Positions 15,481-41,696 of a stretch of 64,000 bases of DNA are shown in pieces. A program made the translations under genes and the position numbers. The notes under the pieces were generated by a model. That model was not told the DNA's origin. It worked only from the letters and a program-made list of their open reading frames with translations, and did no database searches. The stretch covers positions 61,380,001 through 61,444,000 of the forward strand of contig OX597814.1 in the NCBI GenBank assembly GCA_951406725.2, read 5' to 3'. The DNA is from Octopus vulgaris (lineage: Eukaryota). The first letter of the stretch is position 1, and each line of letters opens with the position of its first letter.

Positions 15481-18400
15481 ATTATTTATTAATTTCCATT
15501 CGTCAAAGTACAAGTTCAATTTTCATTAGTGGTGGAGATATAAATGAGTGCATCGATTTCAGTAAAGTGACTCGATCTATTACTCAGAACAATTTGTTGA
15601 CCTCTGAACAATGAAAGACAAAGCAAGGCTGAAAATAATAATGAAACGAGATCTTTGGGAGGTCTGCTTCTCTCAACAACAATTATAATGATGAATTCTT
15701 ATTGGCAAGACGACGCTTATATTTTTAGGGAGAGAAAACAAGTGAACGTGGCATTTATGCTTTTCCCAGGAGCATTAGCATCGTTAAAGCAATGTTTTCA
15801 ACTGGGAATTAAAACCCAGTTTTAGTTGTTGTTTAGCTCCAGATCAACCCTAATCAAGAAGACCTGTTATTATGAAAGGCATTCCGCCGTGTGCTCTTTT
15901 TAAAGAGGATAGGACGTCGTTTCAGGGAAATTTGACTGCTATCTCTAGCGTGTTGAATAACCACATAGAGGCTTCTAGTAAATTGCCTTCGTCGAAAATG
16001 CACTGTTGTGACACATTGTCCAAAATGATTTTATACAAGATGGGAGGAGAAAGTGGAAGATATGACAGTTCATGTGTTTTCAATTATATTTACTCTTTAA
16101 TGTTTATATTGAAATTATACTAGGCACATTTTTAATCGGACTAGTAAATAACTTGCATTTATATAATCGTGCTCAGCTACCCGCACGGTAGCTGCCATGT
16201 TCCGCATTATCATGAAAGCCGGAATCTTTTGGGACAGCATAATATCAAATTGATAATTATAATAAAATTATTTCTGACATGAGGGACAGATATTGATGAT
16301 TGTAATCAGATCATATATCAGATTTAGGACTATGTTGATACCTCTCTGAATTTTGTACTTTATTTTTGTAACAATAATATTACTCGAATCTTTGGAATAG
16401 CTAAATCCACTCTACTGCTACATTTTTTTTTAGTCGTAGCTATCTTAAAAGTCAAGAGCTGCTAGTCGGAGAAGCATTATTCAAAGATATAACAATACAG
16501 ACATGCGCAATTCATGGAGACAACCTAATTTTTCTGTTAAACACCAATAGTTTATTTTTGACTATGCCTTCCGTTCATTTGTTTGATTACGCTATTGTAA
16601 TCATGTTAAAAGTCGATCTTGCACTGTCTCTGCAGTAATAATCATCCATAGACGTAGCTACAAGTGTTCTAATAGACAGTAGATGAGATCAGCTTTCAGA
16701 AAGAAAGAAAGAAAAAAGGAATTCAACTCCAACTATGACTGCTGAAATTTATTGATCTCTTTTCCCCTTCCTCTAACAGTTATTATTATTTTTATTATTT
16801 TCAAGTAGTATTTATGTATCGGGCTTGTTGCCAGCCTTCTATGGTTAGATTTTGCGACTTAATAATATTACCATTCATACTGCTGTTTTGTTTCAATAGT
16901 TGAGTAATTATCATGTCTGAGTCATAACATTTTTTTTATCACATTGAATATTTTTATATTAGAAAATACGGTTTAATAACCGAGGTCTGTGAGTTTTTAG
17001 TTAAAAGATAATTAAAAATTAAATTAGTTTTAAGGAAATGTTCTTATACATTACCTTATTTAGTTATTTAGTTGTATACGCAAATAAGAGAACCTTGAAC
17101 AAAAATGTTCACTTATTTTTGTGTATTATACTTACTTTAAACTAACAGCCTTTGCAATGAGATTTTCTTTCAAATTTGTTAATGCAATAATTTATCATGC
17201 ACTAATTTATTGTTACTGAATTTGTTTCTACACTGTAATTCCATTTTAATTATTTAGTCGGAAAATTCAGGGTATAGGTGATGAAATTTTCTCGAATTTC
17301 TTTCGTTAAGTAGTTGTCAATAGAGAAATTGTCGTTAAATGTACCATGGAAATATATAGCTCTATCGCTAATATTTATTTTAATAATGATGAACTTAGTG
17401 ATGCTGATCTGGAAGTAGTTGGACGTAAATATATGTGGCAGCCATTTTAAAGTTACCAGTCGATCATAGAACATTCTCTGATCGATGTGTTTTCAGTTTA
17501 ATTTCAGAATTCGTGCATAATAAACAAATCTTTCTTTTTAATAACCAAAAGCTATTGGAAAATGTTTTGGTACCCTCAAATCAGATTTCTGGAACAGTGA
17601 TACTAACGTTGATATATTTATTTTACTTGGAAATTTTCCCCTTTAAATTTCATTAAAACTAGTTAATTGATTTTCGTTTTTTTCTTTTTGTCTACCAATA
17701 TATCGTTTAATGTCCTTTTCCATAAGTAAAATGACTGAATAGACTTAACGTAGTGCTTCCGAATCAATTTCGAGCAGACTCATAATTGAGGGCATTCTAG
17801 ATTTGTGACCGTCTCATCATTATTTCTCTCATAAGCCTTATAAGGACTATATTATTCAATTTGTTCCCCCGAATAGGGTGCGATTCGAGGGAGATTTACC
17901 TTCCACTACGTTAAGCGAACACAGTGGGTTAATAGGGATTTCTAACCTGAGCACAGGCCTACAGGTTTTTTTGTGAATGGGATTTAGTCGGTTATATCAA
18001 TTCCAGCCTTTGTCATTTTCTCAACCTCAATGGGATTTGAACTCAGAACGTAAAGTGATGCAAATATATAATCCGTAAAATATAGATGATATATGTACAG
18101 ATCTTCTTTATAACCATAGCGTTAATATTTGTTAAAAGGTCTAGGCATCATACATATTAAAACACGAACACAAAACATTATTTGATGTTTGAGTATAACG
18201 TGCCGTTTTCGCAAATTTAAGCTGTTAATCAATCAGCTTGTCTGGCGACTGCATAAGATTTTGTCTAAAACTGTATTGTGGTCAGCTTCTTTGTCATGGT
18301 AGTGTTTGTGTGGTGGTGGTGGGGGGAATGACACTTGGGATCCTTTAGGTGAGATGAAATGAGTTCAAATAAGAGTAATTTGCCACCTTTTTTTTTTTTT

Positions 18401-19424
18401 TTTTTAAGTAAAACAAAACAAATTATTTACACAATCTGAAGCCTTATTTTCCATTTCGCAAACTAACTTAGCTTCATCGACAGTATTGCAGATGTAAGAT
18501 ATATTGCAATAAATATTTTAAACAAATGAAAGAAAATTAGGGTCATCTATCAACCATGATATTTACAGGAAATCGAAGTAATTTTACATCAAGGAAAAGG
18601 AAATCCACGAAGTAAATTATTTCTGAACATTACTTCCGAATAACAAAATTACGACTACCAACATTTTAATGTTTCACTCAAATTCTTTCAAGTAATTGTT
18701 GAAAATTTGTCTAGATGCACCATTCTCCTTCATTTTTTTTTTTTTTGCATGGTACCAAAAGGACTCATTACTTTTTGTTTGTGCATGACAGTAAAATTAA
18801 CAAACTTTTTACTGTGGTTCTCAATAATATGATCAATTCCTTTCCAATATGTAACTGTTTTTGTCTTGTCCATTTTCAGTTTTCACTGAAACATTATCTC
18901 TACTCTAAAAATATATCTCATTAAGCAATTACTTTACTAATAGTGGCTTTTACAGGCAGACAAAAAAAATTAGTGAAACCATTTTATAACATTGCCAACA
19001 ATTTTTATTCACAACCTGGGCACATTTTGTTAATTTGCAATTATCTTGACATTTTTCCCCTATGATCCCTTTTGTGGCAAATTACACCTCTGTGCAGAAT
19101 TTTGGGTGTCTTTTAACAAAATGCACCAGTCAGTAATGTACGATGTATAAATAAGGTCTGAACTTTAATACAAAATTGTCTTGCTGGCAGTCAAGTTATT
19201 CATTACAATTGTGTAAAAACAAGGTTAAGTTTTCCAGGAGAATTTGCCTATATATGATGAACAGGTACATGTAGTAGTAAATAGATACAACAACGACCAG
19301 CAAAAATAATTGAAAACTAGTGTCCCTTGAGAAATTGAAAGCTAAATTGGAAAATTACCCAGGTGAAAGTGGAAACGTATGTTGCACTGCAACATTACCT
19401 TCATTTATATATCATCTTAAGTGA

Positions 19425-19710
19425 AGGCACATGGCTACATGGTTAAGGTATTTAGCTCATGATCGTAAGGTCATGAGTTCTATTCTTGGTGGTGCATTGT
19501 GTCCTTGCGCAAGATACCTTCATGTTACTCCAGTCCACTCAGCTGGTCAAAATGAGTTGTCCCTTGTCCTCATGCTGAATCTCCCTGAGAACTACATGAA
19601 GGGTGTGCATGTCTGTGGAGTGCTCAGTCACTTGCATGTTCATTTCATGAGCAGGCTGTTCTATTGATCAGATAAACTGGAACCCTTGTTGTCATAATCA
19701 GCAGTGCTAG
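19425..19710 (+). mobile_element. SINE family C copy
   Basis: tRNA-like head TGGCTACATGGTTA..GAGTTCTATTC; reverse complement of 860-1165. Confidence 0.7.
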
Positions 19711-21618
19711 TTATATCATCTTAAACAAGAGCAACAAAAGTTTTAGCAATTGGATTCTACTTCACCCTCCCATTTTAACACTAACCACAGCAAAATTTTA
19801 AAATACCTCCTTTTATAAACAAGTTGGCTGTGATGCCAACCTACCACAGCCATGAAACAACAATGTTCGGAAAAATGAAACTGGTGTGTTATACTATAAG
19901 AAATCATTTACATTCATGCGCTTGGCCTTCTTGAGTTATTTCTCTTAGCTCATTCTATTTTCTTTTTAATTATGCAAAAACAGATATTGCTAGGGATTAT
20001 TTACATTCTGTGTGGACCTCTTTCTAAACTGAATACATAAAATTCGTTAGCATGGAGAAACAACAAAACATTGCAAAACAGTTAAGAGGTATAGAAATGT
20101 TCTTTAAATCTGAGTCAGTCCTGATCAAGTAAACATATGATCAAAGATGTTCCCGACATGACCATCTGATTTTGATGCATAATGTATCTAGGACTACATT
20201 GTCCAATGTTTCCATTTTTCAAGGCAGTAGGGTGTGATTTGAAGAAGTTTAGTTTGTAATTATATAGTCAATCTTTTTGACTGCATGGCAGACTGGAGAT
20301 CAAATAAAAAGTTACTTGTGCACTTCACAAAAATAGCTTTAAAAAACTGTTTAGAAAATAATGTAGAAAACTATTGTGTAAGACACTCAAATCATGTAAA
20401 TATTTTAAAGTCTTAAGTTATGTGTTTAAAAATTTATGGCATCTTTACCCCTTGAAGCACATCAGTGTGCTGTTGCACCTAGGTTCACTCCTGTTCACCA
20501 TCTGTGTACCACTGTCACAGAAGCAATATTGTTCCTTGAAGATAAGGTGGCAAGCTGGCAAAATTGTTACTGCACCAAAAAAATGTTTAGCAGCATTTCT
20601 TCCGACTTTGCTTTGCCTTTCATCCTTTCAGGGTAGATAAAATAAGTACCAATTGAGCATTTATATGCTGGCAGTATTACATCCTTGCTACTGTCTGACC
20701 TTTCCTGAAAACTGCTGGCCTTGTGCCAAAATTTGAAACCAATATTCCTTGAAGATACATTGATTTGATGTCTTGGGTATCACAAGAAAAGAACTCTAGC
20801 AAAGACTTTATAATAATGACAATGGCAGTAGAAAAACTGTTAGAGCTTATATTTTTGATTAATTAGATAATAGGTTACTTAGCATCCATTTATGTATATT
20901 TGTATTTAGGCATGAAAGATTATTGCATTAAATCTGATTAAAATGTACTTTCCCTCTCATCTTATTTGTATTTTCTTTTTGACTTTATGCCGTTACTGCA
21001 TAGATATGAAGTAAAAAATAAATAAAAACATTGCTACTACATTTAAGCATGAAAATTTCTTTTCAAAAGTGTGTATGTGTGTGTGTGCATATGTTTTTCT
21101 GTCTCTCTCTCTCTGTATGAAATCGATGATTCACACTTTAAATTATTCAGTTCAAGCAATTTTCCTACTGAAGTTGAAGCTATTTAATATATAATGTATA
21201 CACACTGTATTTACTCATACAATGTAATCTCAGATGTAATGTGACTACTACCTTTTGTACCTAGAAGAAAATGATGTATATTTTAGCCCACCCCCTTTTT
21301 TACACTCATATAATTCTCCCACCAATTTTGATCCTGATATTTTGTATTAAGTTTGCCAAATTATTCACAAGTAATATCTTAAACAAGAATGTTGTTGACA
21401 GTGACTTCGAAGTTTTTACCAGCTAAACCATGCATATGTACACACACACAATTTATTGATGTGTGTTAGCTCCAGCTTGATCAATATAATTACAATTATA
21501 TGGACATAGTTTCAATTCTCAAGTTTTCTGCTTAATGGACATAATTATTATTAATAATAGTTATGTAGATCGTGGCAGAACACCTAACTGAATTACCTTG
21601 AAATATTTAGTTATTTTA

Positions 21619-21815
21619 AGGCGGTGAACTGGCAGTACCATTAGCATATCCAGGCAAAATGCTTTGTGGCATTTTGTCCATCTTTTATGTTCTGAGTTCA
21701 AATTCTGCCATTGTCAATGTTTCTTTTCATCCTTACAGTGTCAATAAAATAAGTACTAGTTGAGCACTGGGGTTGATGTAATCAACATACCTCTTCCCCT
21801 GAAATTGCTGGCCCT
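21619..21815 (+). mobile_element. SINE family A copy
   Basis: AGGCGGTGAACTGGCAG head, GAGTTCAAATTC B-box, central domain. Confidence 0.8.
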
Positions 21816-24501
21816 ATAAAGTTATCTCCATTTACATTCCAAATCCTGCTGTGGGAAGGTTATATTAGTATTCTTCTGTCCTAATTCAGTATGTAACATT
21901 CATTTGATTAAATCAGATCTATTACTCCCAAAATATGCAATTTTGTGCCAATGTTAGAAATAGTATTATCATGTGTAGGATGTAAAAATTATCCTGCTTT
22001 ACCTTGAGCTCTCAAATCTATAATGGAATTATAGGGGTGCCTTTATGACACAGTGTCTTTGATTTTTTAGATTTAGTGGAGCTCAGATTTAACAACTGCC
22101 AGTTTTGTTCTGAAGAGTAAGGAACAAAGAAAAAAGTGAGATAAAAGGTGACTCAGCCCTCAATGCATGACTGATATTTTATTAACTCTGTAAGAATGAA
22201 ATGTTAGGTTGACCTTGGTATGGTTTCAGCTCAGAATGTAGAGGGTTGGAACAATTATCACAGAGCAATCTATCCAATACTCAGACAACTCTGCATATTG
22301 GCTGCTTCTTTGTAAAAGTTGATAACATTGAACAGAGTGCATTGTGTTCTGTGTTCAAAATTTTGTCACAATTAAGTTTTTGCCTTTCATTCTTCTTGAG
22401 TTATTAATATTTTCAAATTACTTGAAAGTTCTTCCCTACTATTCCATATACAAATTTATGGCACTTCGTCAGTGTTAGAATTTGCTGTTATTTTACCTTC
22501 AGTTTGTATCCACACAACTACAATCTTGAATCAAGCATGGGAACCTGACCTCTAAAATATCGTTGGACTTCTTTGATTTGTTAGACAGTTGGTGGACAAT
22601 GATTTTTGCATTTTTTTTAGAGTTGATAGTGAGCATGATGTTAACAATTATATATTGTGCAGACTCTTTTGGAGGGCATAAGAATAACTTCCAGAATTGG
22701 CAATACTGCAGAAAGGCACTACAAGATAACAGGTGTTAGAACAACAAAGCTTGTCTGAAATAATTTGGCCTGATGAAACTGTTCTATATACATGCTTGTT
22801 GAGCGCCCACGACTTAGCAGCTGCCTACAAGTTTATGTCAAATAGTTATTGCATTGTGTGGGAAGAATCAAGTTGTCCAGCAGGTCCATCCTAAGGATTG
22901 TTTCTTCACCTTGCTTTTATAAGATATATTAACAGTTTTTTTGTCTTGTAGTTGTAGCAAAAGAAGAAGTGTGACAAATCAGTTTTTTCCCATTTGAAAC
23001 AAAACCTCATTGTCTTCCAGTGTCACTTCAAGTGTAAAGAGAAGGAGGAGAAAAAATTCTGACCTCAAATAAATCTTATGATAGGTTGGTAATAATGGTG
23101 GGTTTAATTGAAGCTGAATGTCTCAGCTTGGGTTTCATTTGCAAACTTGCAGCCCTAACCTTTGTGTTGAGAGCAGTTATGTTTAGTTGGGTTTCCTGAT
23201 GTTTCCCTATGTGATTGTCATCTTTTTGGGAGGTTATGTACCTTTTATTTGAAATAGTTATGTAATGTGATATGTATTTCACTGTCTCCCCCCCCCCCCC
23301 ATCATCCCCTTCTGTTTTTATGATTTTGTCAAGTGAGTGAACTCATTAGTTATGGAAGTGGGAGTTCACCTGGTCAGAAACATTCACCTTTATATTTCAA
23401 GTAAAAACCAACCTAACTGGTTTTAATTTACAAGTCAAAATTTTCTAACAAGTTTGGCTGGATAATAAGATATGTTGTGTGTATGCACACTTTTTGAAAG
23501 CATTGTTTCTTTTATTTTTGCTCATAGATTACCAGAACATTTTTGTTGTAAACAAAAAGATTTTTACTGAACTACCTTAATATGTACTATCTTTTGGCTA
23601 ATTTAGTTTGTATCACCATCAGTTTTTGTACATTTTCTTTATATGCTGGCAGTATTACATCCTTGCTACTGTCTGACCTTTCCTATATGTTTACATAAAA
23701 TGTACAATTTATTGTGCTGCTATTCTTAGCAAGCAAGTTCAACCCCATATCTTTAAGATGTCTTAGTCATTATTATCATTATTTTGCTGTTAAATAATGT
23801 AGTTTTCTTATATTTGATTTCATTCAGTAGTGTTGGAGAACAACAAAAAAAAAAGAGAGAGAGAGAGAGAGAAATAGCTTTTGAATACAACCAGTTGCCT
23901 TTGTGTATTTGTCTTGTTTCTTATAGGATTCTTAATTGCCCAACTTCCAGAATTCACTGATTGACTTTTTTTACTGCAATACAGAGATAAATTATATCTG
24001 ATATCATCTTGGTTACAGAGTACACATCTAGTATTTTGTTCCCTTACTCTGCCTAACCCCTTTACAGGAAAATAACTTACCTGATATCTACCAAATGTTT
24101 CTATATCTATTTATAAACACAGCTTCTGTATGAGATACAGGAGTGGACAAGCATTCATTTGCCAAGGCTCCACATTTAGTATTCTGCAAAGGAATTTAAT
24201 ATGGAATATCATGCAGACAATTTAAAAGCTCACTGGTGGGGTGGGGGTTAGTGTATTGTGGTAATGAAATGAAATAATGTTCTCTTTTCCTAAGAATTTT
24301 CTAATTGATTAGCATTCACTTACACCATTTGAAAAGAAATTGCTCTGCAGTTGTTTATTTCATGGAGTAACTGATGCATTATATAAAAGTCATGGTGGTG
24401 ATCGAAATTGTCCAAAAATTTTGTCTGCTACATGTAAAGAATACTTTGTTCATTGAAATTCTTATTGCTAGAGCATTTTTATTTTATTATTCATTTATTT
24501 G

Positions 24502-24729
24502 AATGTGGTGAGCTGGCAGAATCGTTAGCATGCTGGACAAAATGCTTAATGACATTTCTTCTGGTTCTTTACCTTCTGGATTAAAATTCCACAGAGGGCG
24601 ACTTTGTGTTTTATCCTTTCAGAATCCATAAAATGAGTACCAGTTGAGCACTGGTACCAATGTAATGAACCATCACCACCACCAGAAAAAAAAAAAAAAA
24701 TTACTGCCGTAGCACTAAAATTAAAAAGC
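24502..24729 (+). mobile_element. SINE family A copy with 16-bp TSD
   Basis: ATTATTCATTTATTTG at 24486-24501 and 24730-24745. Confidence 0.8.
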
Positions 24730-25071
24730 ATTATTCATTTATTTGTAAAAGTGAAATGAGTATAAATCAGGCTCACTGACATTTGTATGGAAATAGAAAT
24801 ACAGTTATTTCAGTATTTAATTAAAAATCAAAGGTCCCTTGAAACATGTTAAGATTAATGTTGAGGTGTGTCTACATAAATGTGAATGCTGCATTTGTTC
24901 ACTTGTGTCTGTGCACGTGTGTGTGATCTAAAAATTAAGTTGCAGTTTTTTTTTATGATTATTTTTGTATATTAAAATTACTGAAAGCAACGCTCATAAA
25001 CCACTTCACAGCAAAGCATTGAAGAAAAGGAGTGAATGGCATTAATAGCACAAAAGCTCTATGTGTGTGTG

Positions 25072-25146
<75 letters not shown>

Positions 25147-25769
25147 GATGGCAATAAAATTATTGACAAAAAAAATTGAATAAAATATCATGAGAAAGTA
25201 ATAAATGAATTATAATGAAATGAAATGCAGTAAATGAGATGACAACAAAGAAGCTAAAACACATGAGATATTAATAAAAGAAGAAATATATATATTAAAA
25301 TGAAGAGAGCCTGCCAACATTAAGTAAGGTACTTGTTAACCTTGAATTTAAAAGATGGTCATAGTTAGCAGGAGAACAATACATATCATTCCTCTATTTA
25401 GCTATGCTTTGTGCATGGAACTTGTCCACGATATATCTAGGAAGCACAGATGCTTTCCCTAAATTTGGCAAACTGAGTTTTGGTGGAAAATTTTCAGACT
25501 GCTGCAATAGTACAGTAAAAATTATACATTATCTACAATAGACTGTTTCCCAAAGCCCAGTGGATAAATAGTTGTCGTTTGCTCATTGATCAATATAGTA
25601 AGATATTGATTAGTTCATAAGACTAGTCTTTCAGCTGAAATGTCATGTGAAATGTAAAATAAGGTTATATGTATATATCGAAATATCTGCGTTCACACTT
25701 GCTGTTGTATATGCATGTTTATATTTGTATGTATATGTAATTATATACATGTCTATTAACTTATCTAAA

Positions 25770-25776
25770 TGCGTGT

Positions 25777-25809
<33 letters not shown>

Positions 25810-25854
25810 TATACAAATATATGTATTTACAAATTTATTTAAATATTTATATAA

Positions 25855-25910
<56 letters not shown>

Positions 25911-25970
25911 CGCACGTGTATATATGTGTATAAATATGCATGTATATGTGTACATATATGCGTGTATATA

Positions 25971-26020
<50 letters not shown>

Positions 26021-26115
26021 TATATATATATGTCTATATATATGTATATATACATGGATATGTATATATATATATAGATATTTGTGTGTGTATGCATGTA
26101 TTTGTGCGTATGTGT
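25770..26115. repeat. (CA)n/(TA)n/(TG)n low-complexity tract
   Basis: Directly visible. Confidence 0.95.
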
Positions 26116-26611
26116 GATTGTGCAACCTGTGACTATATTGCATGATCTGAGATTGCTAGAGTGGGTGAAAGAGAAGAGGGGGATCATACATAAGCAAAAT
26201 GCCAGTTAAAATATTTTAAAGTACAGTCGTGTAGATTTTTTTTTTTAGGTGATTTTTGAAGAGTCGTCTCGTTTCCTTCCTAGATTGGTATCATTAATGT
26301 AGCTGATATTTAATTTCAGTGTATTGTGTTTGATTTATATTAGTAAAATGTAATATTAGCTTCTCATACAGTTTTCCCCAACAGATATTAACTTGTACTA
26401 GAAACATATATGAGAGTTGACAGAGAAAGCCCATTCAGCACATGCTGCAATTCTGCTGTCTAGAAGAAACTTTCAATTCAATAGATGATCACATATGAAG
26501 CTTATATTTGGGCAGTGTGGCTTGAGGTTCCTATACTATACACACTGTCGACAGTAATTGCAATGATGTAATTTTACCAAAGTTTTCATAAGCTACTGTG
26601 TGTGTGTATAT

Positions 26612-27001
26612 ATTTTATTCTTTTACTTGTTTCAGTCATTTGACTGTGGCCATGCTGGAGCACCACCTTTAGACGAACAAATTGATCCCAGGACTTATTC
26701 TTTATAAATTTAGTACTTATTCTATCAGTCTGTTTTACTGAACCACTAAGTTATGGGGACATAAACACACCAAAATCAGTTGACAAGCGATAGTTGGGGG
26801 ACAGACACAAACATACATATCTATACGATGTGCTTCTTTCAGTTTCCGTCTACCAAATCTACTCACAAGGCTTTAGTCAGCTCAAGGCTATAGTAGATGA
26901 CACTTTCCCAAGGTGCCATGCAATGGGACTGGACCTGAAACCATGTGATTGGGAAGCAAGCTTCTTACAACACAGCCACACCTGCACCTATATATGTATA
27001 T

Positions 27002-27054
<53 letters not shown>

Positions 27055-27352
27055 TGTTTCAGTCATGAGACTGCAGCCATTTTGGGTCACTGCCTTGAAA
27101 TATTTTTAGCTGAATGAATTGACCCCAATACATTTTTTTCAAAGCCTGGTACTTATTTTATTGGCCTTTTTTGTTAAATTTCTAAGTTATGCAGTTGTAA
27201 ACACACATATACAATGGGATTCTTTCAGTTTCCATCTACCAAATCCACTCACAATGCTTTGGGTGGGCTGAAGCTATAGTAGAAAACACTTGCCCAAGAT
27301 GCCATGTGGTTGGGAACCAAGCTTCTTACCACACAGCCACACCTGCACCTAT
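26612..27352 (-). mobile_element. Two tandem SINE family B copies separated by (TA)n
   Basis: Both end in CACAGCCACACCTGCACCTA (reverse-complemented head); homologous to 36062-36430. Confidence 0.8.
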
Positions 27353-27474
27353 ACACACATACATATATATAGCCACATTTCCTGGAATAAAGAAGTGGGT
27401 AATATAGTCATATCTGCACATTTATGGAGCAAGTCTCACCAAACTTCATCATAGAAAGCTATAGAAACCCACTT

Positions 27475-27669
27475 TAATCCTTTAGCATTTAGATTACTCA
27501 AAAGTAATGCTTATTTATTCACATTGATTAGTCATGCCTTATCTTGTAGCTTTGAGATTTCAATGATGTGGTTGTTTATTTTTAGAATAATATTGTAGGG
27601 TAAGAGCTGGTCACTTAGAAGATTGATTATTTTAGCCAGATATGACCAGTTTAAATGCTAAAAGGTTAA
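27475..27669. mobile_element. piggyBac-like MITE family 2 (diverged)
   Basis: TTAA-TCCTTTAGCATTTA ... TAAATGCTAAAAGG-TTAA; homologous to 53203-53421 in reverse orientation. Confidence 0.7.
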
Positions 27670-28814
27670 CTAGGTAGTTTTGCATAGTTCTAAAATTTAT
27701 GCCTTCCTTTTCACTAACAACAATGTACTGCATAGTCCTGAGATTTAAAGAGGCATACATTGTTCTTCAATGTTCTTCCTCAGAAAAAAAAAAGGGTTTA
27801 TTATGTGCAGTTTGGATGTCAACACTATCCAAAAGAAGTCTTGAGCCTTATATTTTTGTATAATCTCCAACAAATCTGTTACAGTCACAACAGGAAAGAG
27901 GCTGCAGCATTAAACTCTCTCATTCACAAAATACTGAACAAAAAGCTTAAATGAAATACATCATAGTGGTGTCCCTGTATGACAACAACAAACAGGTTGA
28001 TACCAGCAAAATACTAAAAAGATATGCATGTATACCTAAAATGAATGAATGAGCAATGTATATGTATGATTTTGATAGTTAATGTAGATTTGTCGTACAG
28101 TTCAGGTACATATTGTTGAAATCCATTGTAGATTAAAATATTGCAAAATAAAGTATTTTGTAAATTAAAGATATCTTGCATATAAATAACTATATGTACT
28201 GTACTTCTTGTCTTGGAAGGAATGGTTTGTTGAAATTCAATTATGGGTAGTAGAACCTTTTTTGATTCTTATTTATCTTTGAAACACAAACAAAATTCCA
28301 TTCAAGTTATTGTTCTTTACGTTCTTCAGTAATTTAAGAAATAGATGGAAGCAGAATTTGTGACACTTGCAGATGAGTTTGGAAATAATCTAATGATATA
28401 AATGCGAAAACTAATTTCTATGTGTCACACTTAGACCCCCCCCTCTCACTATTCAATGACTCTCCTACTATTCCTCATGATGTGGTGAGAGTAATAGTAG
28501 GCATAGAGTGGTGAAGACAGAGAGAGAGAGAAAGACGAAGAAATTTAGGGAGAGTTGATGTTTTATTAAAGTTGTAGTGTTGATGGTGGCAGTGGGAGTA
28601 ATAAAGAGAGAAGGAGGGAGATGATGTACAAATTTGTTTAACCATGTCTCTTTGACAGAAATTCCTGTTGCTAACATACTGAACATTATCATTTTTGTTT
28701 TATTTTTTGCTTTCTTACACACACATAAAATACACTTTAATTGAAATGAAGTTTCCCCAAAATTAACTTATATAATAAATGTGAATGTCAGTGTGTCACA
28801 CTTTTTCAACTTTA

Positions 28815-29052
28815 ATAAGTCCTTTCTACTGGAAGTACGAGGCCTCAAATTTTTGGGGGAGGGATTAAGTCGATTACATTGATCCCAGTAAGTAAGATGG
28901 TACTAACTTTATCAATGCCAAAAGCATGAAACGCTAAGTCGACACAGCGGAATTCAAACTCAAAACCTAACGGCAGACGAAATACTGCTAAGCATTTTGC
29001 CTGGTGTGCTAACGATTCTGCCAGCTCGCTGCCTTAGTATAACATAATAATG
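28815..29052 (-). mobile_element. SINE family A copy with ~42-44-bp flanking direct repeat
   Basis: Direct repeats at 28771-28814 and 29053-29094. Confidence 0.8.
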
Positions 29053-30932
29053 TATAATAAATGTGAATGTCGGTGTGTCACACTTTCAACTTTACTCCTA
29101 GAGGCTGTAGCCCAACATACCATTTTGGAATCAGGCTAACTTCATGAGTAAATTAAAAACATTCCGGGCCGAATCCAAACCCACAATCCTGAAAGTTTGG
29201 ATTCCCAAGTTTTCATTACTGTGATTGTTTTTGATGATTTTTTTTTTTTAACATGGCTTTTAAGCTAGTATGAAATAAGCTGTGTTTTGGAATATTAACA
29301 CAATTGGCTTCCCTAGACATTCTTAAATGTAATAAAGAAAAAAAATCTTATGATTGTGATGATCATGTTGTTAGTAACATTAGTCAGCACTAACAAGTGG
29401 TTCATCAGCTTGAGTCATTGAAATTTGCAACATAATGGATTTGTATGTTTTGACTGTTTGACACTGGAAACGGATATGTTTCTGATTCAGAAGAGAAAAT
29501 TTAGTATCAATTTAATTGTTATATCTCAACATACGATAGAAAACTGTAGATTAAGTAAATAGATTATTTATTTTTTGATATCTCCATTGTTTTCTATCAT
29601 TGAAATTAGTATTTAATTATTTTTTTCTGGACCTCTGTGTTAAGTAGGCTTAAAATTTGTTTCTAGAAACTTGAATAGAGGATGGTAAGGGAAAAATATT
29701 TAGTAATAAACAAAACCAAATTTTTAAAAAGCTGTAATCTGGAAGATTATAAGGCTTCAGATCTAACCATAAATTGATTGTAATAATCTTTGAGAATAGT
29801 TTTGTTATAAATTATACTTGATTACTTTGAATATATTTTTTGAAACTTCAGAACTGTTTAGAATTTATGTCTTTAACTTCTATATTTTCAAATAAGTAAT
29901 TCTCAGATCATTCTCCTTATGTGAAAGTGAAACCACTAATTTTAAATTTTAAATCATAAAATGGAATAATTTCATTTTAATTTTTGTATATCTGCAAATA
30001 ATTACATAGTGTGGCATCCTAGAATAAGAAGGATTGACTTGTCACCACCTGTTTGTCTTTTTTGACTAAAATTAATCATTTAGATAATGATAGTTCTTAT
30101 CATTAGGAGTGTAGTTATAATTTATTAAAATCTTACTACATCAAGTATGTTATTGCTCACTTTACTATTAAGTTTCCATGCAGCAAGCATCCCTGGATAT
30201 TTTTTGCCAATCACTCCTTTTAAGTTATGTCACTCATAAGTTTTTTGTGGACACTAGCCTTGCAGTTATAGGTAATAAACATGGATTTGACCAGAGTTGT
30301 CACCATTTCTACATTTCTAATTCATGAATTTTAATTAAAATTTCAAGGTTGTCGTCCTAGCACTTTTAACCAGTATTATTAGTTTAAATACTGATTATTT
30401 TAATCATAACTAAGGGTGTCATTAAAATCTTATTGACTAATTATATTATGTATGCTGGTAGTGTACATTTCATTATTAAGAATGAAGATACTTGAAACAC
30501 TTTGTGTTTCTGGAAATTGATGTAACTATTTAAACAAAGTGCTAGATTGAAAACAGATTACCATATTTAACTTAATGACATTTTCTGGCTCTTTACAATT
30601 TTGAGTTCAAATGTCTTTGAGGTTGACTTTGCTTTTCATCCTTTGGGGGTCAAAATATCAGTGCTATTTTAGTGTGCAGTCTATCACTATATTTATAGTC
30701 TGTTGTGAAATATCCTGATCTGCATCATGGATTGGGGTTGAATTCACTCTACAGTGTAAATGGCCAGGTTGACCACATGCTAAAGTGGCAGTGAAAAATT
30801 ATCAGTTGCACACAGAGGTCAGTGTAATTGACTACTCCCACCTCTCAAAATTGTTGGCCTTGTGCAAAAATATTATTTCACTTATTTTATATGTTTAATA
30901 CATGGGCTAACTTGTGTGTAGATTTTTCTATA

Positions 30933-31144
30933 TATTTCTTTACTGCCCACAAGGGGCTAAACATAGAGGGGACAAACAAGTGGATTAAGTCGATTACATC
31001 GACCCCCAATGTGAAACTGGTACTTTATTTATCGACCTCCGAAAGGATGAAAGGCAAAGTCGACCTTGGCGGAATTTGAACTCAGAATGTAACGACAGAC
31101 GAAATACGGCTACACATTTCGCCCGGTGTGCTAACGTTTCTGCC
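30933..31144 (-). mobile_element. Young SINE family A variant with 13-bp TSD
   Basis: AGATTTTTCTATA at 30920-30932 and 31145-31157; CpGs retained. Confidence 0.85.
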
Positions 31145-32699
31145 AGATTTTTCTATAACCAACTGCTCCTCCTGTTTCCAAGTAAGGTAATATATCCCTT
31201 TCACTGGACTGTGTTTTCATGGAAGACTGGAAATAAATGACAGCACTGGTCTGACAATGACAGTTGCATACAACCATCATGTGATGTCAAGACAAGGAAA
31301 TAAACATGTACACATGCACACACACACACACACACACATACACATAGCAGGCTTCTTTCAGTTTCTCTCTACCAAATCCACTCACAAGGCTTTGATCAAC
31401 ACAGGGCTATTATAGAAGGCACTTTCCCAAAGTACCATGCAATGGAACTGAATGTGAAATGATTTTGTTGGGAAGCAAACTTTTTAACCACAGTCATACA
31501 TGCACTTACCATTTTTACACATAGTCAAAGCCATTGTTTCTAGAACTAGTTGTACTTCCAAGTCAGTTGTGAAATATAATTCCACCTATTTTGATCTGAT
31601 ATAGCTAAACATGACTTGGCATTACAGTGCTTATAGAAGTTTGATAACTTACCCACTGTCTCTAATTGTGTATTTATCAATGAAACCTTTTTTTAAACTA
31701 TCTTGCTCACATGATTTGATGCTGAAAGAGTTACCTTGAAGAAGATACTGCTGAGATACCCAGATCTAGACAGAAATAAAGCATCTTAAATTCTCTAGTG
31801 GGGTATTGCAATTCTAAATTGTCTTTTAAAAAAATCACTTCTGTTTGTTTTGTTTGCACTAGAATTCTATATTAAGTAACTATTAACAAACCAAGAAGCA
31901 TATGGGTAATTCCATGCTCAGAACTTTTCTCTTTTATATCAACCTCTTTCCCCATCCATTTTTAATTTTAAGTCTATTGCATACTAGAAGAGTTCCAGTG
32001 CACCCTGTGGTTGTTTTCATAAACTCATTTCTATGATTGCTTTGTTCTAGTTTTTAACTTTCAGCCTATTTATATTTAGTTATTTTAGAAATTGTGTGTG
32101 TGTGTGTGTGTGTGTACATATACACATGTTGGTGTATCTGTGCCATTGATAATTTTAAATAAAGATATTTTAATATAGTTTGCATGAAATAATTTCTGAA
32201 TTACATTTTTAAATTTCAATATTGAACTTTCCCTCGTTGCTTTCCAAACGTTACCCAGCACTCACAAACACACTCCCCACCCCTGCACTCGGCAGGTCTC
32301 ACACCGGTGAACTTATTTATTTTCTGAAAATGATATCAGTTACCATGTTAATATGTTTACATGTGTGTTTGTATATAAATGCATATATATATTTGTATGC
32401 ATGTGTGTCTTGATCTCCTGCTAGTTCCTTCCATTTGGATTACTTGATACTGGCGTACTCTATTGTTTTACTCATCAAATGTTCATATCAGCTCATCCTG
32501 GACCTAGACTTTGCTTCCACATTTAGAATTTCTGCTAATTCTTTAAAAATTTCAGTTATGAAAACTAGCTCATAAGCAAAGTGGAATTCCCATCTACAGC
32601 TGTTTTAACCTGGTGAATTATAAATAGGACAGGCTTTAAGAAAAGAGCTTTGATGGACACTTAGCTGTATGCTTATTCTTTTGCTAAACTCATTGCCAA

Positions 32700-33300
32700 C
32701 AGCATTTCTGTATATGGTTTATATGACTTGCGCACACCATTCATGTATACCTTGTTTTCTTAATCTCTACCCACCAACCAGATTACAATGCATGATACCC
32801 TATCAAAGGCTTTTCCAGATCGACAAACAGTAGGCATAATAGTTTGCTTTTTGCTAAAAACTTCTGTAGTTTTATCATTTGAAAGAAGGTATCGGTGATT
32901 CCTTGTCTTGGGACAGATCTGAGCTGCATATCATGTGGGCCAACTTCTTAACTAGTTGTATTATTACTCTTAGTTGTTTTTTGAAATAACTAAGCTATAA
33001 CTAGATAAACCAAGTTATAACTTGGTCTATCAGTCTTAATATCACTGTAATTGCTTTTTTTGAGAGAATTTTCTTTGCACCTGTAGCAGTTGATGAATGA
33101 TATTGCTATGCTAGTCCTGTACTACCTCTTGACTAAGTAGTGCATTTTCTACTTGGCCAACTATTTTCAACATCTTGACACCTATCCTGATGATCTGTCT
33201 GCTTTCCTTGCTTTCCTAATCTTAATGGTCTTTTTAACCATATAGCTGTCAATTTCAATAGCTGGTCTCCTCTTCACTCACTCTTTCCTAAGTATTCTCC
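32700..33300 (-). mobile_element. Old RTE-like LINE RT fragment
   Basis: Reverse complement aligns loosely to the RT region of the 2222-6077 element (FVDLEKAFD-like segment near 32800-32830). Confidence 0.55.
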
Positions 33301-33602
33301 TCAGCAACTTCTATTAACAGTATTTATATAATTCATTCATCTTAGTGTCAATGATGCTGAGCCCATTGCTGTTTTTACATATATATTCCACTCCCCCATT
33401 CCTTCAACATTTTGATTTATACTGACATACTGCTTTGCAATTGGGAACACCTAATGTTACAGACATTGATATCTCTGATACAAACATTTATATATGCTTT
33501 GAACAGTGGTTACCAGATAGTATACTATAGGGTATAGTTAAGTGCACCATGAAAATATAACTGAAACGCTAAATTCATTTAAATTGTGTGTGTATGTATG
33601 TA

Positions 33603-33636
<34 letters not shown>

Positions 33637-33652
33637 AACACAAATGGTATTT

Positions 33653-33746
33653 AAAATTTACAACAGCTGTTTCAGTAGTATTTTATTTATGCATTTGTAG
33701 AAGATTACATCATAACACATGAGCCACTATCATCAGGTAAAACTTT
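33653..33746 (-). ncRNA. Type-I minimal hammerhead ribozyme motif (antisense to Khc)
   Basis: Minus strand: aaagttttac-CTGATGA-t-agtgg...ctact-GAAA-C-AGCT-G-TT-gtaaatttt; helix I, II and III all formable; palindromic AGCT loop. Confidence 0.65.
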
Positions 33747-33877
33747 ATAGAGGTAAGATTTCAAACAATCAGATTACTTACATTGATTTGGATAAATCCA
33801 ATGTCAGTTGGATCAGTCCTGATTGATGGACTGACATTGGGTTTGTCCAGATCGATGTAAGAAATCTCACCTGTTTA

Positions 33878-33968
33878 AAATTTTATCTGATGATGGTGAA
33901 TAATGTTATGCTGTAATCTTCTATAACTGCATAAATAAAATTCTACTGAAACAGCTGTCGTTACCTTA
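33878..33968 (+). ncRNA. Type-I minimal hammerhead ribozyme motif (sense to Khc), helix I degraded
   Basis: CTGATGA at 33887-33893, GAAACAGCTGTC at 33948-33959, long helix II; poor helix I pairing. Confidence 0.5.
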
Positions 33969-34194
33969 AATACCATTTGTGGTTACTTTTTATACCTATA
34001 CTACATCAAGAAGCGACTCCAGAGTCAGATCTATGGTTTAAATTGGATTTGGGTTAGGGTCAGCAATATCCTACCAACACTCAAGTGTCTTCTGTGTTGT
34101 TTACCTCACTGTGAGCTGTGTTATCATACCTAGCCATTTCTGACATTCTGTGTGTTGGTGTGCTTAGATTCTAATGAATCGTTATAAGTAGATC

Positions 34195-34587
34195 ATATTC
34201 TTTTATTTGTTTCAGTCATTTGACTGCAGCCATGCTGGAGCACTGCCTTCAGTCAAACAAATTGACCTCAAGACTTATTCTTTGTAAGCCTAGTACTTAT
34301 TTGATTGGTCTCTTTTGCCAAACCACTAAGTTACAGGGACATAAACACACTAACATCAGTTATCAAGCAATGGTGGGGGGGGGGCAAACACAGACACATC
34401 AACACACACACACATATATATATATAAAACAAGCTTCTTTCAATTTCTGTTTACCAAATCCACTCGCAAGGCATTGGTTGGCCTGAGGCTATAGTAGACA
34501 CTAGCTCAAGGTGCCACACAGTGGGACTTAATCCGGAACCATATGATTGGTAAGCAAGCTACTTATCACACAGCCACTCCTGCGCCT
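34195..34587 (-). mobile_element. SINE family B copy
   Basis: Ends in CACAGCCACTCCTGCGCC; reverse complement of 36062-36430. Confidence 0.85.
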
Positions 34588-36061
34588 CTCTGTTGCTATA
34601 GTATTACATTTCAAAATGCAAATTGCTTCAGAATTATGATAAATTTATCCTTTAATTATCTTTTCTGTGGCATAGATGTCATAGTGAGAATATGTTATAT
34701 GGAAGTCAGTCATGACAGATCCTAAAAAGTTTATTTTAAATAAAAATAATATAGCCACTTAATTTTCAGACTGTATTCAGAAATATACATACATTATAGT
34801 TTGTATTTTGTCAGCAATTTCAAAAGAACATCTAAGCTGTTGCAGATCACATTTTTATGACAATAATGATTTAAATGAAATTTGCTTATAAACTGCAACA
34901 ACTTCTCTTTCTCTGTCCAACTGTCTGTGTCTCTCTCATAAACTGAAAGTGAGTGCTATTATGAAGAAAAGAGAATGCTATTAGTACTTGTTGGTTGTTA
35001 AGACATTGATATAAGATATATCAGATTAAAATAAATCTGAAATAAGATCTGATATGAGTCTAGGACATTTATCCTCCATGGACAATTACCCCTGAGGACT
35101 ACAGATGATGATTTAAAACTTCTTAAGATATATCACTACAAATCTAAAACTTTGACATTGTGTAAGTGTAAAAATAGTTAAACTATATATGAATGACAAC
35201 ATTGTGAATGTCTTATTTATTCAACTAGATTGTCTCTCTCAAGAAAATAGTCATGCTCATTAGTTTTAGTTTATTGTTTGTGTGTAAATGTGTAAACAAG
35301 AATAGCTGGAATGGTGTTCCCCATAGCTCTAAGATTTTAATTGTGCTGGTCCAGTAATATATAATGTTTGGAATCAATTTAATGAATTATTCAAATCACC
35401 AAATTACTTTCATGCTTTATTTAGAAATTGTAATAATTATTTAGTACAATAGATTTATGAGCTATTTTTCCCCTGACTGTTTTACAGTCTGCCTTTCTAC
35501 AGATGTATGGACATAATGATTTTGTTAGGGTAATTGCTTAGCCATGAACTGAAAAAGTGAAAAGCCATGAAATGTCATTCTGACAGACTTACTCATGCAA
35601 GCCATTTTTCCCCCCATTTTTTTTTCTACTTTAACAGTGATTCAACACAGTGATTGTGTAATAAAGTTTGAAGTCATGACTAGTCTAGAATGAGTTTTAA
35701 TTCGTAATTATAAAACATGAACATTATATTTTATGAAAACTATGCTAAGTTTATAAAAAAAAATTAATTCACTATTGGCATTAAAACTAGTTTAGCAACT
35801 GTTAGAAATATGTCTTATCTGTTCTTGTATCACTTATCTTCTTAGCAATATTAAAATTTAAGATTTTAGTTTTTATGGAAACTACATAATGTTAGATAAT
35901 CTAACATTCACGTAGCAACAGTGAATCATGGAGCTGCTACTTACATTACATAGCAGTTTGTAAATACTTATATTTAGTATTAAATAGGTGAGAAACAAAT
36001 TTCTAGGATATTCTGCTAGTTTATTTATATTAACAAAAATCTCTGAACAATTATCTTGATA

Positions 36062-36430
36062 TAGGCACAGGTGTGACTGTGTGGTAAGAAGCTTACTTCC
36101 CAACCACATGGTTTGGGGTTCAGTCCTACTGTGTGGCACCTTGGGCAAGTGTTTTCTACTATACCTTTGGGTCCACCAAAGCCTTGTGAATGGATTTGGT
36201 AGATGGAAAGTGAAAGAAGCCCATCATATATACATATATGTATGTGTGTGTTTCTTTGTGTCTGTATTTGTCCCTCACCACTGCTTGACAACTGGTGCTG
36301 GTGTATTTATGTCCTCCATAACTTAGCAATTTGGCAAAAGAGCCCAGTAGAATAAGTGCTAGGCTTTAAAAAAAATTAATCCTGAGGTTTTTGTTTGATT
36401 TAATAAAAAAAACCTTCCAATAAGTAAAAT
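36062..36430 (+). mobile_element. SINE family B copy
   Basis: GGCACAGGTGTGACTGTGTGG head, GGTTCAGTCC, CCTTGGGCAAGT CORE-like block. Confidence 0.85.
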
Positions 36431-37959
36431 GGCTCTAAAAGAATATATGATGCAATGACTAAATATGCTGTTAGATACACTTTTTTTCTTGTTCATTAAG
36501 AACTGGTTATTACTTGTAACTAATGAGAATTTCTTACTCTCTAGTAAGACATATGTCATTACTTATATGTCTAGTGGGGGTTTCTTCCTGTTTTAATAAG
36601 TTTCCTTGTTTCATAATTGTTATACCTTGCCATCCCCCTCACTCCATAAACTATTGCGAGGTGTGTCTAATAAATGAATACAGTCCATAAAACACATAAG
36701 AACATGGTTCTAATTATTTTTACTTTTTAAAGAATGCTTTTTTTCTATCTCTTGCACTTATTATATGCTAACTCTTTTGTTCTTTCTTTGTTTTCTTTCT
36801 AGTTTATTGATAATCCATCAGTTTTAAGTGTGTGTGTTTGTTTGTGTGTGTGTGTGTGTCTCATGTTACAGGTGGTGCAGAAACTAGCTTCACCAAGATC
36901 ATTGATGATCATTTGGTTTCTGCACATTGTAAAAGATTGAATGTTTTACAGTAGCTTACCTCTCACCACCTTATTCATCATCTGTAATCTTATGACAGTC
37001 AGTGAAAATGCTAATTAAGAAAGAATATGCTTGAATCTTTTAAATACAAGCATTTTATTAACCTAGAATGAATGTTCCATTTTTCTTCTGATCAGATGGT
37101 AGTACACATGACCTTTTACAGCACCTCCAAGATAGGTGTGGGATGTGGTGGAGGGGAAGATATCCTTAAACTGGAGACCTGGTCTGAAGGCTTGTCATAG
37201 AATAGGCTCTGCTAAAGGCATCTAAGGTGCAGGTGATGAATTAAGTAGGCAATGGTGGGTTTTAAATTCAGAACATAAGGATTTGGAATAAATATTGCAA
37301 GGTATCTGGTCTGATATTCTTGCAGTTCCTCTAATTCACCATCCTGGATTGGTAGCTTTGGGGATTTTTTATTGCCCCCACTCCCACCCCCCTCTCGAAG
37401 GGTGACTGCAGAGTCGACCTTGGTGGGATTTGAACTCAGAGTTCAGAGACACAGACCAAATACCATGAGGCATTCTATCTAATGCCCTAATAACATTGCT
37501 AATTCACTGCCTATTTAAGCAATAGCACAAATCCAGAGCAATGTTTGCAAGCTGCATCTGAAAGACCTCTGTTATGAAGCATTTTATTTGAGACTCTTTC
37601 TGCTCTCACTCTTTCATAAAAAGTATCGCAGTCTCAGGCGACATTCTATCTATATAAATCAGTGCAGCTACTACCTTCAGAATGCTACACACCCATATGG
37701 AACAACAACAAAATTTTGACACAAATATAAAGTCTGTTTGGCTTTCTTTGTGTGCAGGTATTCTCTATTCAGACATGTCTCAAAAATTATGACCATTAGC
37801 CTATTCTGTCCACCACTTGTGCTGAGTATGACAGGCTCTGTGTGTGTTAATGTGTAATGGATGTCTTTCAAAGAGTATATTCTAGTGGCATAACAGTTAT
37901 TAGTACTAAAAACAAAACTACTGTGATGTCCTAAAGTGCATTCTCAATAGTGAGAATTT

Positions 37960-39410
37960 ACAGAAAAACAAAACATGAAAACAAGTGTGTAAACAACAAA
38001 CAGATGTATTAGTTTAATGCTTGGGAAGTGAGAAAGTTTTTTCTGTTTCAAGCCTACATTCTTCGACAGAAAATAACACAGAAATAAACAGGGAGAGAAA
38101 ATAGGAAAAGGCTTAGTGGCTAGCAATCTATCATGTCGAATGCCAGACAGAGGGGTCACTCAGGAAAGCTAGGAAGAAGGGGAGATAATAAAGTAGTGGT
38201 GATCCCAAAATTAAGGTGCACGTGCGTGTGGAAGGGGGCTGGTGACATTGACTTGTGCGTGTGTGCATTTGTAGGTATGTGGATGATGGTGTAGGTGCTA
38301 GGAAGTGGTCAGTGCTTGTGTGGGTGCTGGGAAGTAGTCAGTGCTACTGTGTGCAGTGTGGTGTGGAGGAAGCAAGAGTGGGATCTAAGGGATGGGATGT
38401 ATAGGGATGATAGGGTTGGAATATGTAGGGGTGGGGTAACAAGGGAGAAGGTGGGTAGGAGTGAAGAGAGGAAATAGGTGCCAGAGCAAGAGAGGAGAGG
38501 TGGGTGGGAGGAGGAGAGAGAAGGAGGATTAGATGAAGAGGGGAGGAGAGTTGAGCCCATGTGGAACAAAGGAGCGAAGAGAGAAGATTAATCCCTGTTC
38601 ATGCAAAGACGGCAGTCCGGATGGCTCCTGTGCAAGGACAATCCAAATACAGACAGGTGTTGTAAAGAGTGACCGGTAGAGCAGAAATGGTACAAGACCG
38701 GGGTGTCGTTGCTGAGTCAGATGTCTCGGAGGTGTTCCGCAAACTGGTCAGCCAAGCAGTGTCCTGTTTAACCGATGTATAGCAAAGGACAGTCAGAGCA
38801 GGAGATGCATTAGATGACATTGCTAGAAGTGCAGGTGAAGGAGTCAGTGATATGATAGGGTCGATGATGGGTGCCTGTGAGGAGGGTAGTGTTGGAGAAG
38901 TAAGGGCAAGTGCAGTAGCGTGGGTGGGAGCAAGGGAACGAGCTGGGTTGGGAGATTGGGTGAGGGAAGAAGCTGTCGACCAAGAGGTCTCGTAGGTTGT
39001 AGGCTCGTTCGAAGGAGGAGAGGCGTGGTTAGGAAAGACGTGTGAAGTGGAGGGGTTGGACTGGAGTCACTGGAAGGCTCGGAAAATGGTGCATTAGAGA
39101 AGTGGGGTGGTAGGTGAGGGGAAATGGGAGCCGGGTGAGTGGGGAGAGAGCAGATGCACAGTCCACGGAATGTGCTCTGGCAAAGGCGGAGGGGATATCC
39201 ATGTAGGATGAAGTGGCAAGCCATAAGTTGAGACTGATTCCCAAAGTCATGGTTGTCACTGCAGAGCCTGCGTAGACAGAGGAATTGGGAATAGGTGATG
39301 GAGAGCTTGGTGTGTTTAGGGTGGGAGAAAGAGAAATTGAGGTATGAGTGTGAGTCTGTGTTTGTAGTGGATGGAGGGGAGGCGACTGAGGTGTTGGAAA
39401 TAGTGCAGAA
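37960..39410 (-). mobile_element. Penelope-like element (PLE), 5'-truncated and degenerate
   Basis: RT thumb TDSHSYLNFSFSHPKHTKLSITYSQFLCLRRLCS..HGYP, then GIY-YIG remnant FTCTSSNVI*CISCSDCPLLYIG*TG..FAEHLRDI with stops and frameshifts; pyrimidine-rich 3' region. Confidence 0.88.
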
Positions 39411-39673
39411 GTGGAGAACATGTTTGGCATCAATCAAAAAACCAAAGTGAATACAAATTTGGAGAGAGAATCTTGAACGTTCAGGCATGGGTTATAGAGT
39501 TATACTCATTTACTTATTGAAATGTGACAATTGCATAAATGTAAAAAAACCATATTGGTTACAAGGGAACTATATATATTATGTATGTATATATTCACTC
39601 TTATGTCAGTTTTTCCATACAAGCATATATTAGGTGAATATATTATTGAAGCAATGTTTTACCTCTAAATTCT

Positions 39674-39886
39674 TTAACTCTTTAGCATTCAGATTACTTT
39701 GTCAAAATGTAATGCTTAATTATTTATATAGATTTGAATCACTCATATTATCTTGTAGCTCTGAGATTTCAATGATATGGCTATATTTTTAGAATGACAT
39801 TTGAGAAGCCGGATCTGGTCGGTTTGGACATAAAACAGGCAGACTATTTTGGCTAGATATGGCTGGTGTAAATTTTAAAAGGCTAA
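39674..39886. mobile_element. piggyBac-like MITE family 2 (diverged)
   Basis: TTAACTCTTTAGCATTCAGATTAC...; homologous to 27475-27669 and 41089-41295. Confidence 0.65.
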
Positions 39887-39890
39887 TAAG

Positions 39891-40199
39891 CAGTGGTTCT
39901 CAGTTGGAGTCCATATAAGATTTTTGTGGGTCCATGCAACAAAATAGTAAATTGGGGATCCACAATAGTACTTTATGGGCACCCAAAAGAAATTTGCTTT
40001 AGATGTATGTATTGGTATTTATGGCAAGAAACAACTAGGCTACTTTCTCTAACTGTTTACATAGTAAACCAATAGGAATTTTTAAAGAAGTCTCTGTAAA
40101 ACTAGTTTTTAAACATTGAATGGCTATGGATAGGGGGATCCACCAGAATAAAATAGCAATCAAAGAGGTCCATAGATAAAAACTGTTTGAGAACTCCTA
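39891..40199. mobile_element. hAT-like MITE
   Basis: CAGTGGTTCTCA ... TGAGAACTCCT termini with internal GGGTCCA-like subterminal repeats; TSD not clear. Confidence 0.55.
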
Positions 40200-40594
40200 T
40201 GCTAAGGAAATGAAATAGAAAGAAGAATGGTTGTTTTCTGCTGTATTGCTGCTGAACAATGTATATTGACTGGTCTTGGTGTTCTCAGAAGCTTCTAAAT
40301 TGTCTCTCAACTTACTTGTAAAGAACAAACAAATCCCACTCAAATTACATGCTACTATCAACACCTTTCAACATAAATATGTTTGATTGAGGTCAACCTG
40401 ATTTAAATAACTCTCAAATTCTTTGAACCAACAAAAAAAAAAGAAAGACCTGTGCCATTGCTTGACCTGCTAGATATATTAACCAAATTTTCCAAAAAAT
40501 TACACTGTCATCGTAATATGGCAGGGTGTAAAGAACACATCAAAGTTAAATATTACACAAACTAGAAAATTATTCAGAGGGCAGGCTCTTTATA

Positions 40595-40647
<53 letters not shown>

Positions 40648-41088
40648 CAATTGTTACTCTATGTAAAAATTGGTTTGTAGCCATCAGAAAATGGATTTAA
40701 ACCTGAATAGAGGAAGAAAGAAAAGAATGAGTAAAAGTGTATGTGTGTGTGTGTGCGGAAATTGATATGCAGATATTAAATTTATAATCACAAAATTTGT
40801 TTTAATGGTAGTTAAATTGGTCTCCATAGTTTAGCATAATTTGAAGTTTCTGGCATTAAAAGTGATATCTAGAAAAGGGAGCATGTGTACTTCTTTTCAT
40901 ACAATAGATTATTGCCATTTATTTTCATTGAGATGGTGACCATGCTGGATCTGAACTTGGAACTATATTGTGCCACCTATAAAGTAGGGAATTCTTAATT
41001 TTGTACTTCATGTTTACTGAACATAGCAAATGAGAGAATAGCAAAGGTTTTTTTAAAATGCCTGCTGTTACTCTGTATTTGTATATTC

Positions 41089-41608: not shown

Positions 41609-41696
41609 GGGAAAGTATTTGTATTTGACAAGGTTTTGAAGCCTAATGTATCACAAGAATATGTGTACAATGTTGGTGCTAAGCCCATTGTTGCTG
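41609..41696 (+). CDS. Khc: Kinesin-1 heavy chain exon 2 (aa 43-72)
   Basis: Polypyrimidine-TAG acceptor; GKVFVFDKVLKPNVSQEYVYNVGAKPIVA; donor GTAAGT; 88 nt. Confidence 0.97.

Follow-up and report, generated by a model that had tools for sequence, protein, structure and literature searches.

A distal intronic complement to the N117 exon segment of octopus kinesin-1 as a candidate editing guide

Intron 1 of the octopus kinesin-1 heavy chain gene carries an exact 18-nt reverse complement of the exon 4 segment that encodes N117. Three further sense-strand complements to that segment are new here. By its length the 18-mer is about a 1-in-100 event per gene, and together with these three companions it is more than a single lucky match. 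Judged from the sequence, we tentatively read the intron-1 element (copy B) as a long-range editing guide for the N117 exon segment, with somewhat less than even confidence; a chance match is nearly as likely, the evidence being statistical only. The weights given below to four readings are matters of judgement, not computed posteriors.

An 18-nt complement 30 kb upstream of the N117 codon

A 23-exon model of the kinesin-1 gene was built from the window (the whole 64,000-nt stretch of DNA analysed here), neighbouring stretches and a homologue. Its translation is identical to the kinesin heavy chain record P0121, labelled Octopus vulgaris/sinensis. The following features, in window coordinates, bear on the predicted pairing:

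12449..12574, + strand: coding exon 1 of the kinesin-1 heavy chain (gene model)
12575..41608, + strand: intron 1, 29,034 nt (gene model); pairing would require its persistence 16.4 kb past its own 3' splice site
28159..28182, + strand: copy B, the intron-1 complement of exon 4 (exact 18-mer at 28163-28180; 23 bp with one bulge and one G:U)
41609..41696, + strand: exon 2 (gene model), looped out by the predicted pairing
51770..51843, + strand: exon 3, with S75 and Y77 (gene model), looped out by the predicted pairing
57919..58023, + strand: exon 4 of the kinesin-1 heavy chain, codons 97-131 (gene model)
57963..57985, + strand: exon-4 arm of the predicted helix (duplex prediction); codon N117 within it is AAT at 57979-57981

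The 18-nt match claimed in the initial annotation is real: the reverse complement of 28163-28180 is identical to 57965-57982 in exon 4. The gene model confirms the exon 4 numbering and thereby places codon N117, as had been proposed, within the matched segment. RNAduplex reproduces the suggested extension to 23 bp with one bulged A and one G:U pair (exon 57963-57985 with intron 28159-28182), an AU-rich helix of -27.7 kcal/mol. The separation, given earlier as about 30 kb, comes to 29,785 nt between the arms. A polymerase that has passed the 3' splice site of intron 1 has another 16,357 nt to go before it reaches the exonic arm.

Copy B had been placed in non-repeat sequence, and rightly so: it gives a single match in the DNA search, shows no pile-up in the depth table and lies in no TRF array. 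The single match and the flat depth rule out that it is a repeat family. High-copy dispersed repeats at 27450-27705 and 28369-28900 bracket this single-copy stretch in the depth table. Throughout the 2.8-Gb genome the 18-mer has zero copies beyond these two places, and its backwards control has two. An Rfam family or miRNA precursor was likewise rejected, the only two matches being weak, far under the gathering threshold and outside copy B.

Complementarity, within the same transcript, to the strand around the target adenosine is a feature of an editing-complementary sequence (ECS), and copy B has it. In the predicted helix, the distances from A57979 and A57980 to the two ends would be 16-17 bp and 5-6 bp, and both adenosines would face U, not C. 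C is often found opposite edited adenosines. With a 5' U and a 5' A, respectively, the two are what we take to be acceptable ADAR targets.

Match length and chance expectation

Frequent matches of this length in shuffled controls would have counted against the proposed ECS; they are rare. Exact exon-intron complements of at least 18 nt appeared in 9 of 1331 and in 15 of 1535 Markov-shuffled intron sets, or about 1% of null genes, and exon 4 alone yielded none in 1331 Markov nulls. Real sequence gave a similar picture, with none of 14 flanking blocks reaching 18 nt (longest 14-17) and antisense introns stopping at 13. Across the gene, in which 2,904 coding were compared with 59,588 intronic nt, the 18-mer is the only complement longer than 15 nt; direct, reversed and complemented controls reached 13, 15 and 14.

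The closest rival, to which we give a substantial though minority weight, ascribes the intron-1 match to chance complementarity in AT-rich DNA and the degenerate copy beside it (copy A) to small-scale tandem duplication of an ordinary kind. Any editing of N117 would then depend on a local partner, either a 13-mer in intron 4 or an exonic hairpin. Such a length is reached by one null gene per 100 and a genome-wide scan covers thousands of genes, so many such matches are to be expected. Chance must, however, also cover the companions of copy B:

28127..28152, + strand: copy A, a degenerate complement beside copy B that resembles both copy B and exon 4
43495..43506, + strand: intron-2 complement of 57971-57982, exact over 12 nt
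58445..58457, + strand: intron-4 complement of 57971-57983, exact over 13 nt; candidate conventional local ECS

Copy A corresponds to a weaker upstream complement in the initial annotation. It is real (-14.0 to -16.7 kcal/mol) but, since it resembles a tandem copy of copy B, it does not count as fully independent evidence. In alignment with exon 4 it beats all 6000 AT-matched intronic 60-mer controls, and its alignment with copy B is bettered by only 0.2% of controls, so that the sequence makes it a probable tandem relative of copy B. For a chance origin, two properties of copy A are awkward: an adjacent similar copy was found for just 12 of 5000 random intronic words, and copy A pairs with four exon bases (57960-57963) outside the reach of copy B.

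Equally awkward are the two further exact matches of 12 and 13 nt. The core 12-mer AATTAAAGATAT has three sense-strand intronic sites in the gene (28163, 43495 and 58446) and none on the antisense strand of the gene's introns. With 1156 forward and 1184 reverse occurrences genome-wide, 0.025 copies are expected in these introns; the two extra copies have a p of 3e-4 to 9e-4, a value that holds for that one word, whose length was chosen post hoc. Any non-low-complexity exonic 12-mer with three intronic matches turned up in 7 of 1535 nulls, never alongside an 18-mer. The intron-4 13-mer sits 462 nt downstream, in the flanking-intron position that is typical of an ECS, and 13 nt over both N117 As was seen in one of 1490 control chunks; its complement energy of -18.4 was equalled by 6.8% of 497 control chunks. 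Altogether, the excess of complements to the N117 exon segment is hard to ascribe to chance.

A second recoded gene speaks for the chance reading. The cytoplasmic dynein heavy chain, in an approximate and incomplete model of 52 exon segments (9.9 kb; roughly four times the kinesin search space, with one false exon call that is a dispersed repeat left out of the count), showed no complement excess in the pairing orientation, its longest match of 16 being equalled in two of three controls. Four occurrences there of an A-rich 12-mer in a control orientation call for caution with the three-copy statistic. Na/K-ATPase was too compact for an informative comparison. Perfect long-range complements as a general class in these recoded genes were rejected, dynein heavy chain showing none.

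We consider it improbable that copies A and B are a neutral relic: some 26 nt templated by exon 4 or its cDNA would have been inserted long ago in inverted orientation and later duplicated in tandem, and would have no function. A single event would account for both copies and their adjacency, and jointly they span 57960-57985 of the exon (26 bases), with differences peculiar to each copy. Yet the copies differ from one another by several events and from a relative (organism E) by only one base, which makes the pair old, and copy B would have needed to keep all 18 nt intact through that time in the absence of selection. Moreover, the outer flanks lack exon homology (1137/4000 and 760/4000 controls aligned as well), and the intron-2 and intron-4 copies would be left unexplained. 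The same flank comparison disposes of a longer decayed antisense copy of exon 4. A repeat-family origin of the copies in introns 1, 2 and 4 was also rejected, as their flanks align within or near the control range.

Pairing energy and local competitors

By pairing energy, copy B stands out less. Our test was modelled on PMC6724681, with seeded RNAduplex instead of RNAplex and over a wider search space than in that study, the available text of which accepts an ECS at a pairing energy p<=0.001 against shuffles. For copy B, 21 of 921 query shuffles matched the helix over the whole gene, so that in this second comparison with shuffled nulls the element proves mildly unusual, at p~0.02 and far above that threshold, a value that counts towards a chance match. 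The intron-4 candidate is likewise above it (297 of 921 shuffles within 2.5 kb). In a ranking of exon-intron duplexes across the gene, the copy B helix comes 19th. Over 323 nulls, the strongest duplex formed by exon 4 had a mean energy of -25.9 (sd 2.5), and every one of 13 whole-gene nulls had a best duplex stronger than the copy B helix. For the 31-nt N117 window itself, the best intronic duplex (-27.7) is stronger than that in any of the 15 real control blocks (mean -21.0, sd 2.3), and the N117 window ties for first among the first 116 exon windows scanned.

None of six other recoded regions (K67, S75/Y77, K166, K282, K368 and K479/483), whose positions we mapped from the kinesin recoding preprint (10.1101/2022.09.25.509396), had an outlying intronic partner. 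The exon-3 region with S75/Y77 (51780-51814) has fairly strong, imperfect intronic complements at 40651-40684 and, in the downstream neighbouring stretch, at ~70504-70550, both of -28.5 kcal/mol and at the edge of the control range.

Opening costs amount to 8-10 kcal/mol per arm. With these and a random-coil 30-kb loop included, the rough net energy is +1.1 kcal/mol at 37 C and -6.2 at 15 C, and physical pairing would, on this model, be marginal. The 18-mer sits between two small local hairpins, at 28141-28163 and 28177-28198, and its middle stays unpaired. On the exonic side, the 5' end of the long-range helix has a competitor in a hairpin at 57941-57968 (10 bp, 8-nt loop).

A nearer competitor is the intron-4 complement. 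Its region (58439-58463) is the dominant N117 partner in local folds at 37 C, where it captures the N117 As with pairing probabilities of 0.97-0.99 in three of three windows. This favours a local partner, as does the definition of intronic ECSs within flanking introns in the available text of PMC6724681. That partner is nevertheless weak by energy, as the shuffles above indicate, and leads in only one of three local windows at 15 C. In the widest 15 C local fold, the N117 segment is won by an intron-3 partner at 57401-57415. Copy B, for its part, lies neither in the edited exon nor in a flanking intron, exons 2 and 3 standing between intron 1 and exon 4; because of this position and its energy p above the threshold, we do not file it as an ECS, though it may work like one.

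Editing of N117 and conservation of copy B

The initial annotation rested on N117 being a recoded site in cephalopod kinesin-1. For squid and cuttlefish this stands, Asn117 being described as edited in both in the available text of 10.1101/2022.09.25.509396; that text is narrower than the premise, however, and gives the site for these two groups only. It also describes N117D/S/G as altering motility and as favoured by cold in squid. No octopus kinesin editing table was present in the supplements of PMC8382921 and PMC7192619 or in two of the three files of PMC9699675. The PMC4384741 supplement lists one squid editing site elsewhere in the kinesin gene. Among cephalopod protein-cluster members covering the site, the edited N117 variant was absent from all 12, and no edited variant was listed above 88% identity among shorter proteins.

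As to where and how editing might occur, the part of PMC7192619 available to us notes cytoplasmic editing in squid, and the corresponding part of PMC10278661 suggests that intronic sequence or accessory RNAs may explain squid sites without in vitro editing.

Twenty-four sequencing runs under five organism codes, none recorded as RNA, matched 28080-28240, and five were aligned; the lack of RNA records says nothing about expression. Of 624 positions around copy B, 36 are different in organism E (a 5.8% background), and 28030-28262 has 12 substitutions. The conservation proposed as a check on the element could be followed in this one relative, where 28156-28195 is free of changes; the p for 24 nt is 0.24, and that for the unchanged 40-nt run 0.09. 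An apparent 100-nt stretch of perfect conservation in organism E is contradicted by changes at 28149 and 28155. These (T28149G and A28155G) lie just upstream of the conserved run, the first breaking one flanking pair of copy A; the two together turn one local-hairpin pair into G-G and are not compensatory. On the intron side, which was compared, no compensatory change was seen at copy B in organism E. Conservation in one relative is consistent with function but uninformative. Beyond the DNA run, A-to-G changes at copy B were found in none of three contig sets guessed to be RNA, contigs being prone to drop minor variants.

Discussion

How might copy B act? If it is a guide, it would likely pair with exon 4 in nuclear RNA to form a 23-bp helix and hence an ADAR substrate. 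Intron 1, unspliced or lingering near the transcript, would still have to be present when exon 4 is made, and copy B would have to displace both the hairpin within exon 4 and the weaker partner in intron 4. ADAR could then deaminate A57979 and/or A57980, giving N117D/S/G. Editing would also be expected from this helix at A57973 (I115V) and among the intronic As of 28163-28180. Of the long-range ECS originally proposed, the geometry, the numbering and the excess of complements hold up; the recoding premise is narrower than stated, a nearer rival in intron 4 had been missed, and the second intron-1 complement is not independent.

The more far-reaching proposal would be that the octopus kinesin-1 editing guide, located 30 kb upstream in a non-adjacent intron, is one of four competing complements, and that N117 recoding is set by the lifetime of intron 1, or of an excised intron 1 that serves as a natural guide RNA. 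We regard this as possible but doubtful. If true, intron turnover and temperature would be coupled to motor recoding, and cis elements for coleoid recoding would have been sought in too small a window.

The nearest known arrangement is CaV1.3 exon 41 (PMC6101491), where an upstream intronic sequence is likewise complementary to a coding exon with recoding adenosines. According to the available text, however, that 40-bp imperfect duplex spans 3.7 kb, involves the directly preceding intron, is conserved in mammals and is proven by deletion, whereas the kinesin helix is a predicted 23 bp that would span 29.8 kb across two other exons. If validated, an ECS 30 kb away across two exons would act over about eight times the CaV1.3 distance and tie recoding to the order of intron removal. 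For comparison, the AJUBA ECS at 524 nt is termed long-range in the available part of PMC8041805. In ATE1 (PMC7797038, available text), as in kinesin, two short complementary segments of a single pre-mRNA, R2 and R5, lie about 30 kb from each other and have competing partners. The ATE1 pairing joins intron to intron, is deeply conserved, controls exon choice and has been validated with antisense oligonucleotides; that in kinesin joins intron to exon, has a proposed role in editing and draws its conservation from one close relative only.

The study of cephalopod kinesin-1 recoding (10.1101/2022.09.25.509396) concerns the same gene and residue, with the site taken from squid and cuttlefish; its main text, as available, has no match for 'intron' or 'secondary structure' that would point to a cis element. 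Neither an ECS for cephalopod kinesin nor one that skips exons from a non-adjacent intron came up in our search, which left out most of the subscription literature.

The ATE1 precedent, in which functional 30-kb pairing controls splicing, lends something to the reading we rate lowest and think unlikely, namely that the pairing is real but acts on splicing by holding intron 1 to exon 4, thereby setting the order of intron removal or favouring skipping or circularisation of exons 2-3: these exons total 162 nt and exon 4 begins in frame with exon 1, but the helix lies mid-exon and distant from the splice sites, circular RNAs are reportedly low-level in octopus (PMC9699675, available text), and the skipping would, from the translation, remove the P-loop. 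Joint skipping of exons 2 (41609-41696) and 3 (51770-51843) would keep the frame at that cost.

Returning to the guide reading, even if the far copy should prove to be a chance match, the analysis leaves a recoding site of characterised function with two precise, testable candidate partners, 28159-28182 and 58445-58457.

Two further features of the locus may be recorded. Intron 1 has one recursive-splice-like AG/GTGAG motif, at 18343, and its use would alter the removal of the intron. Upstream of the kinesin gene, 8078-8121 is a perfect 44-nt palindrome that is not a simple repeat.
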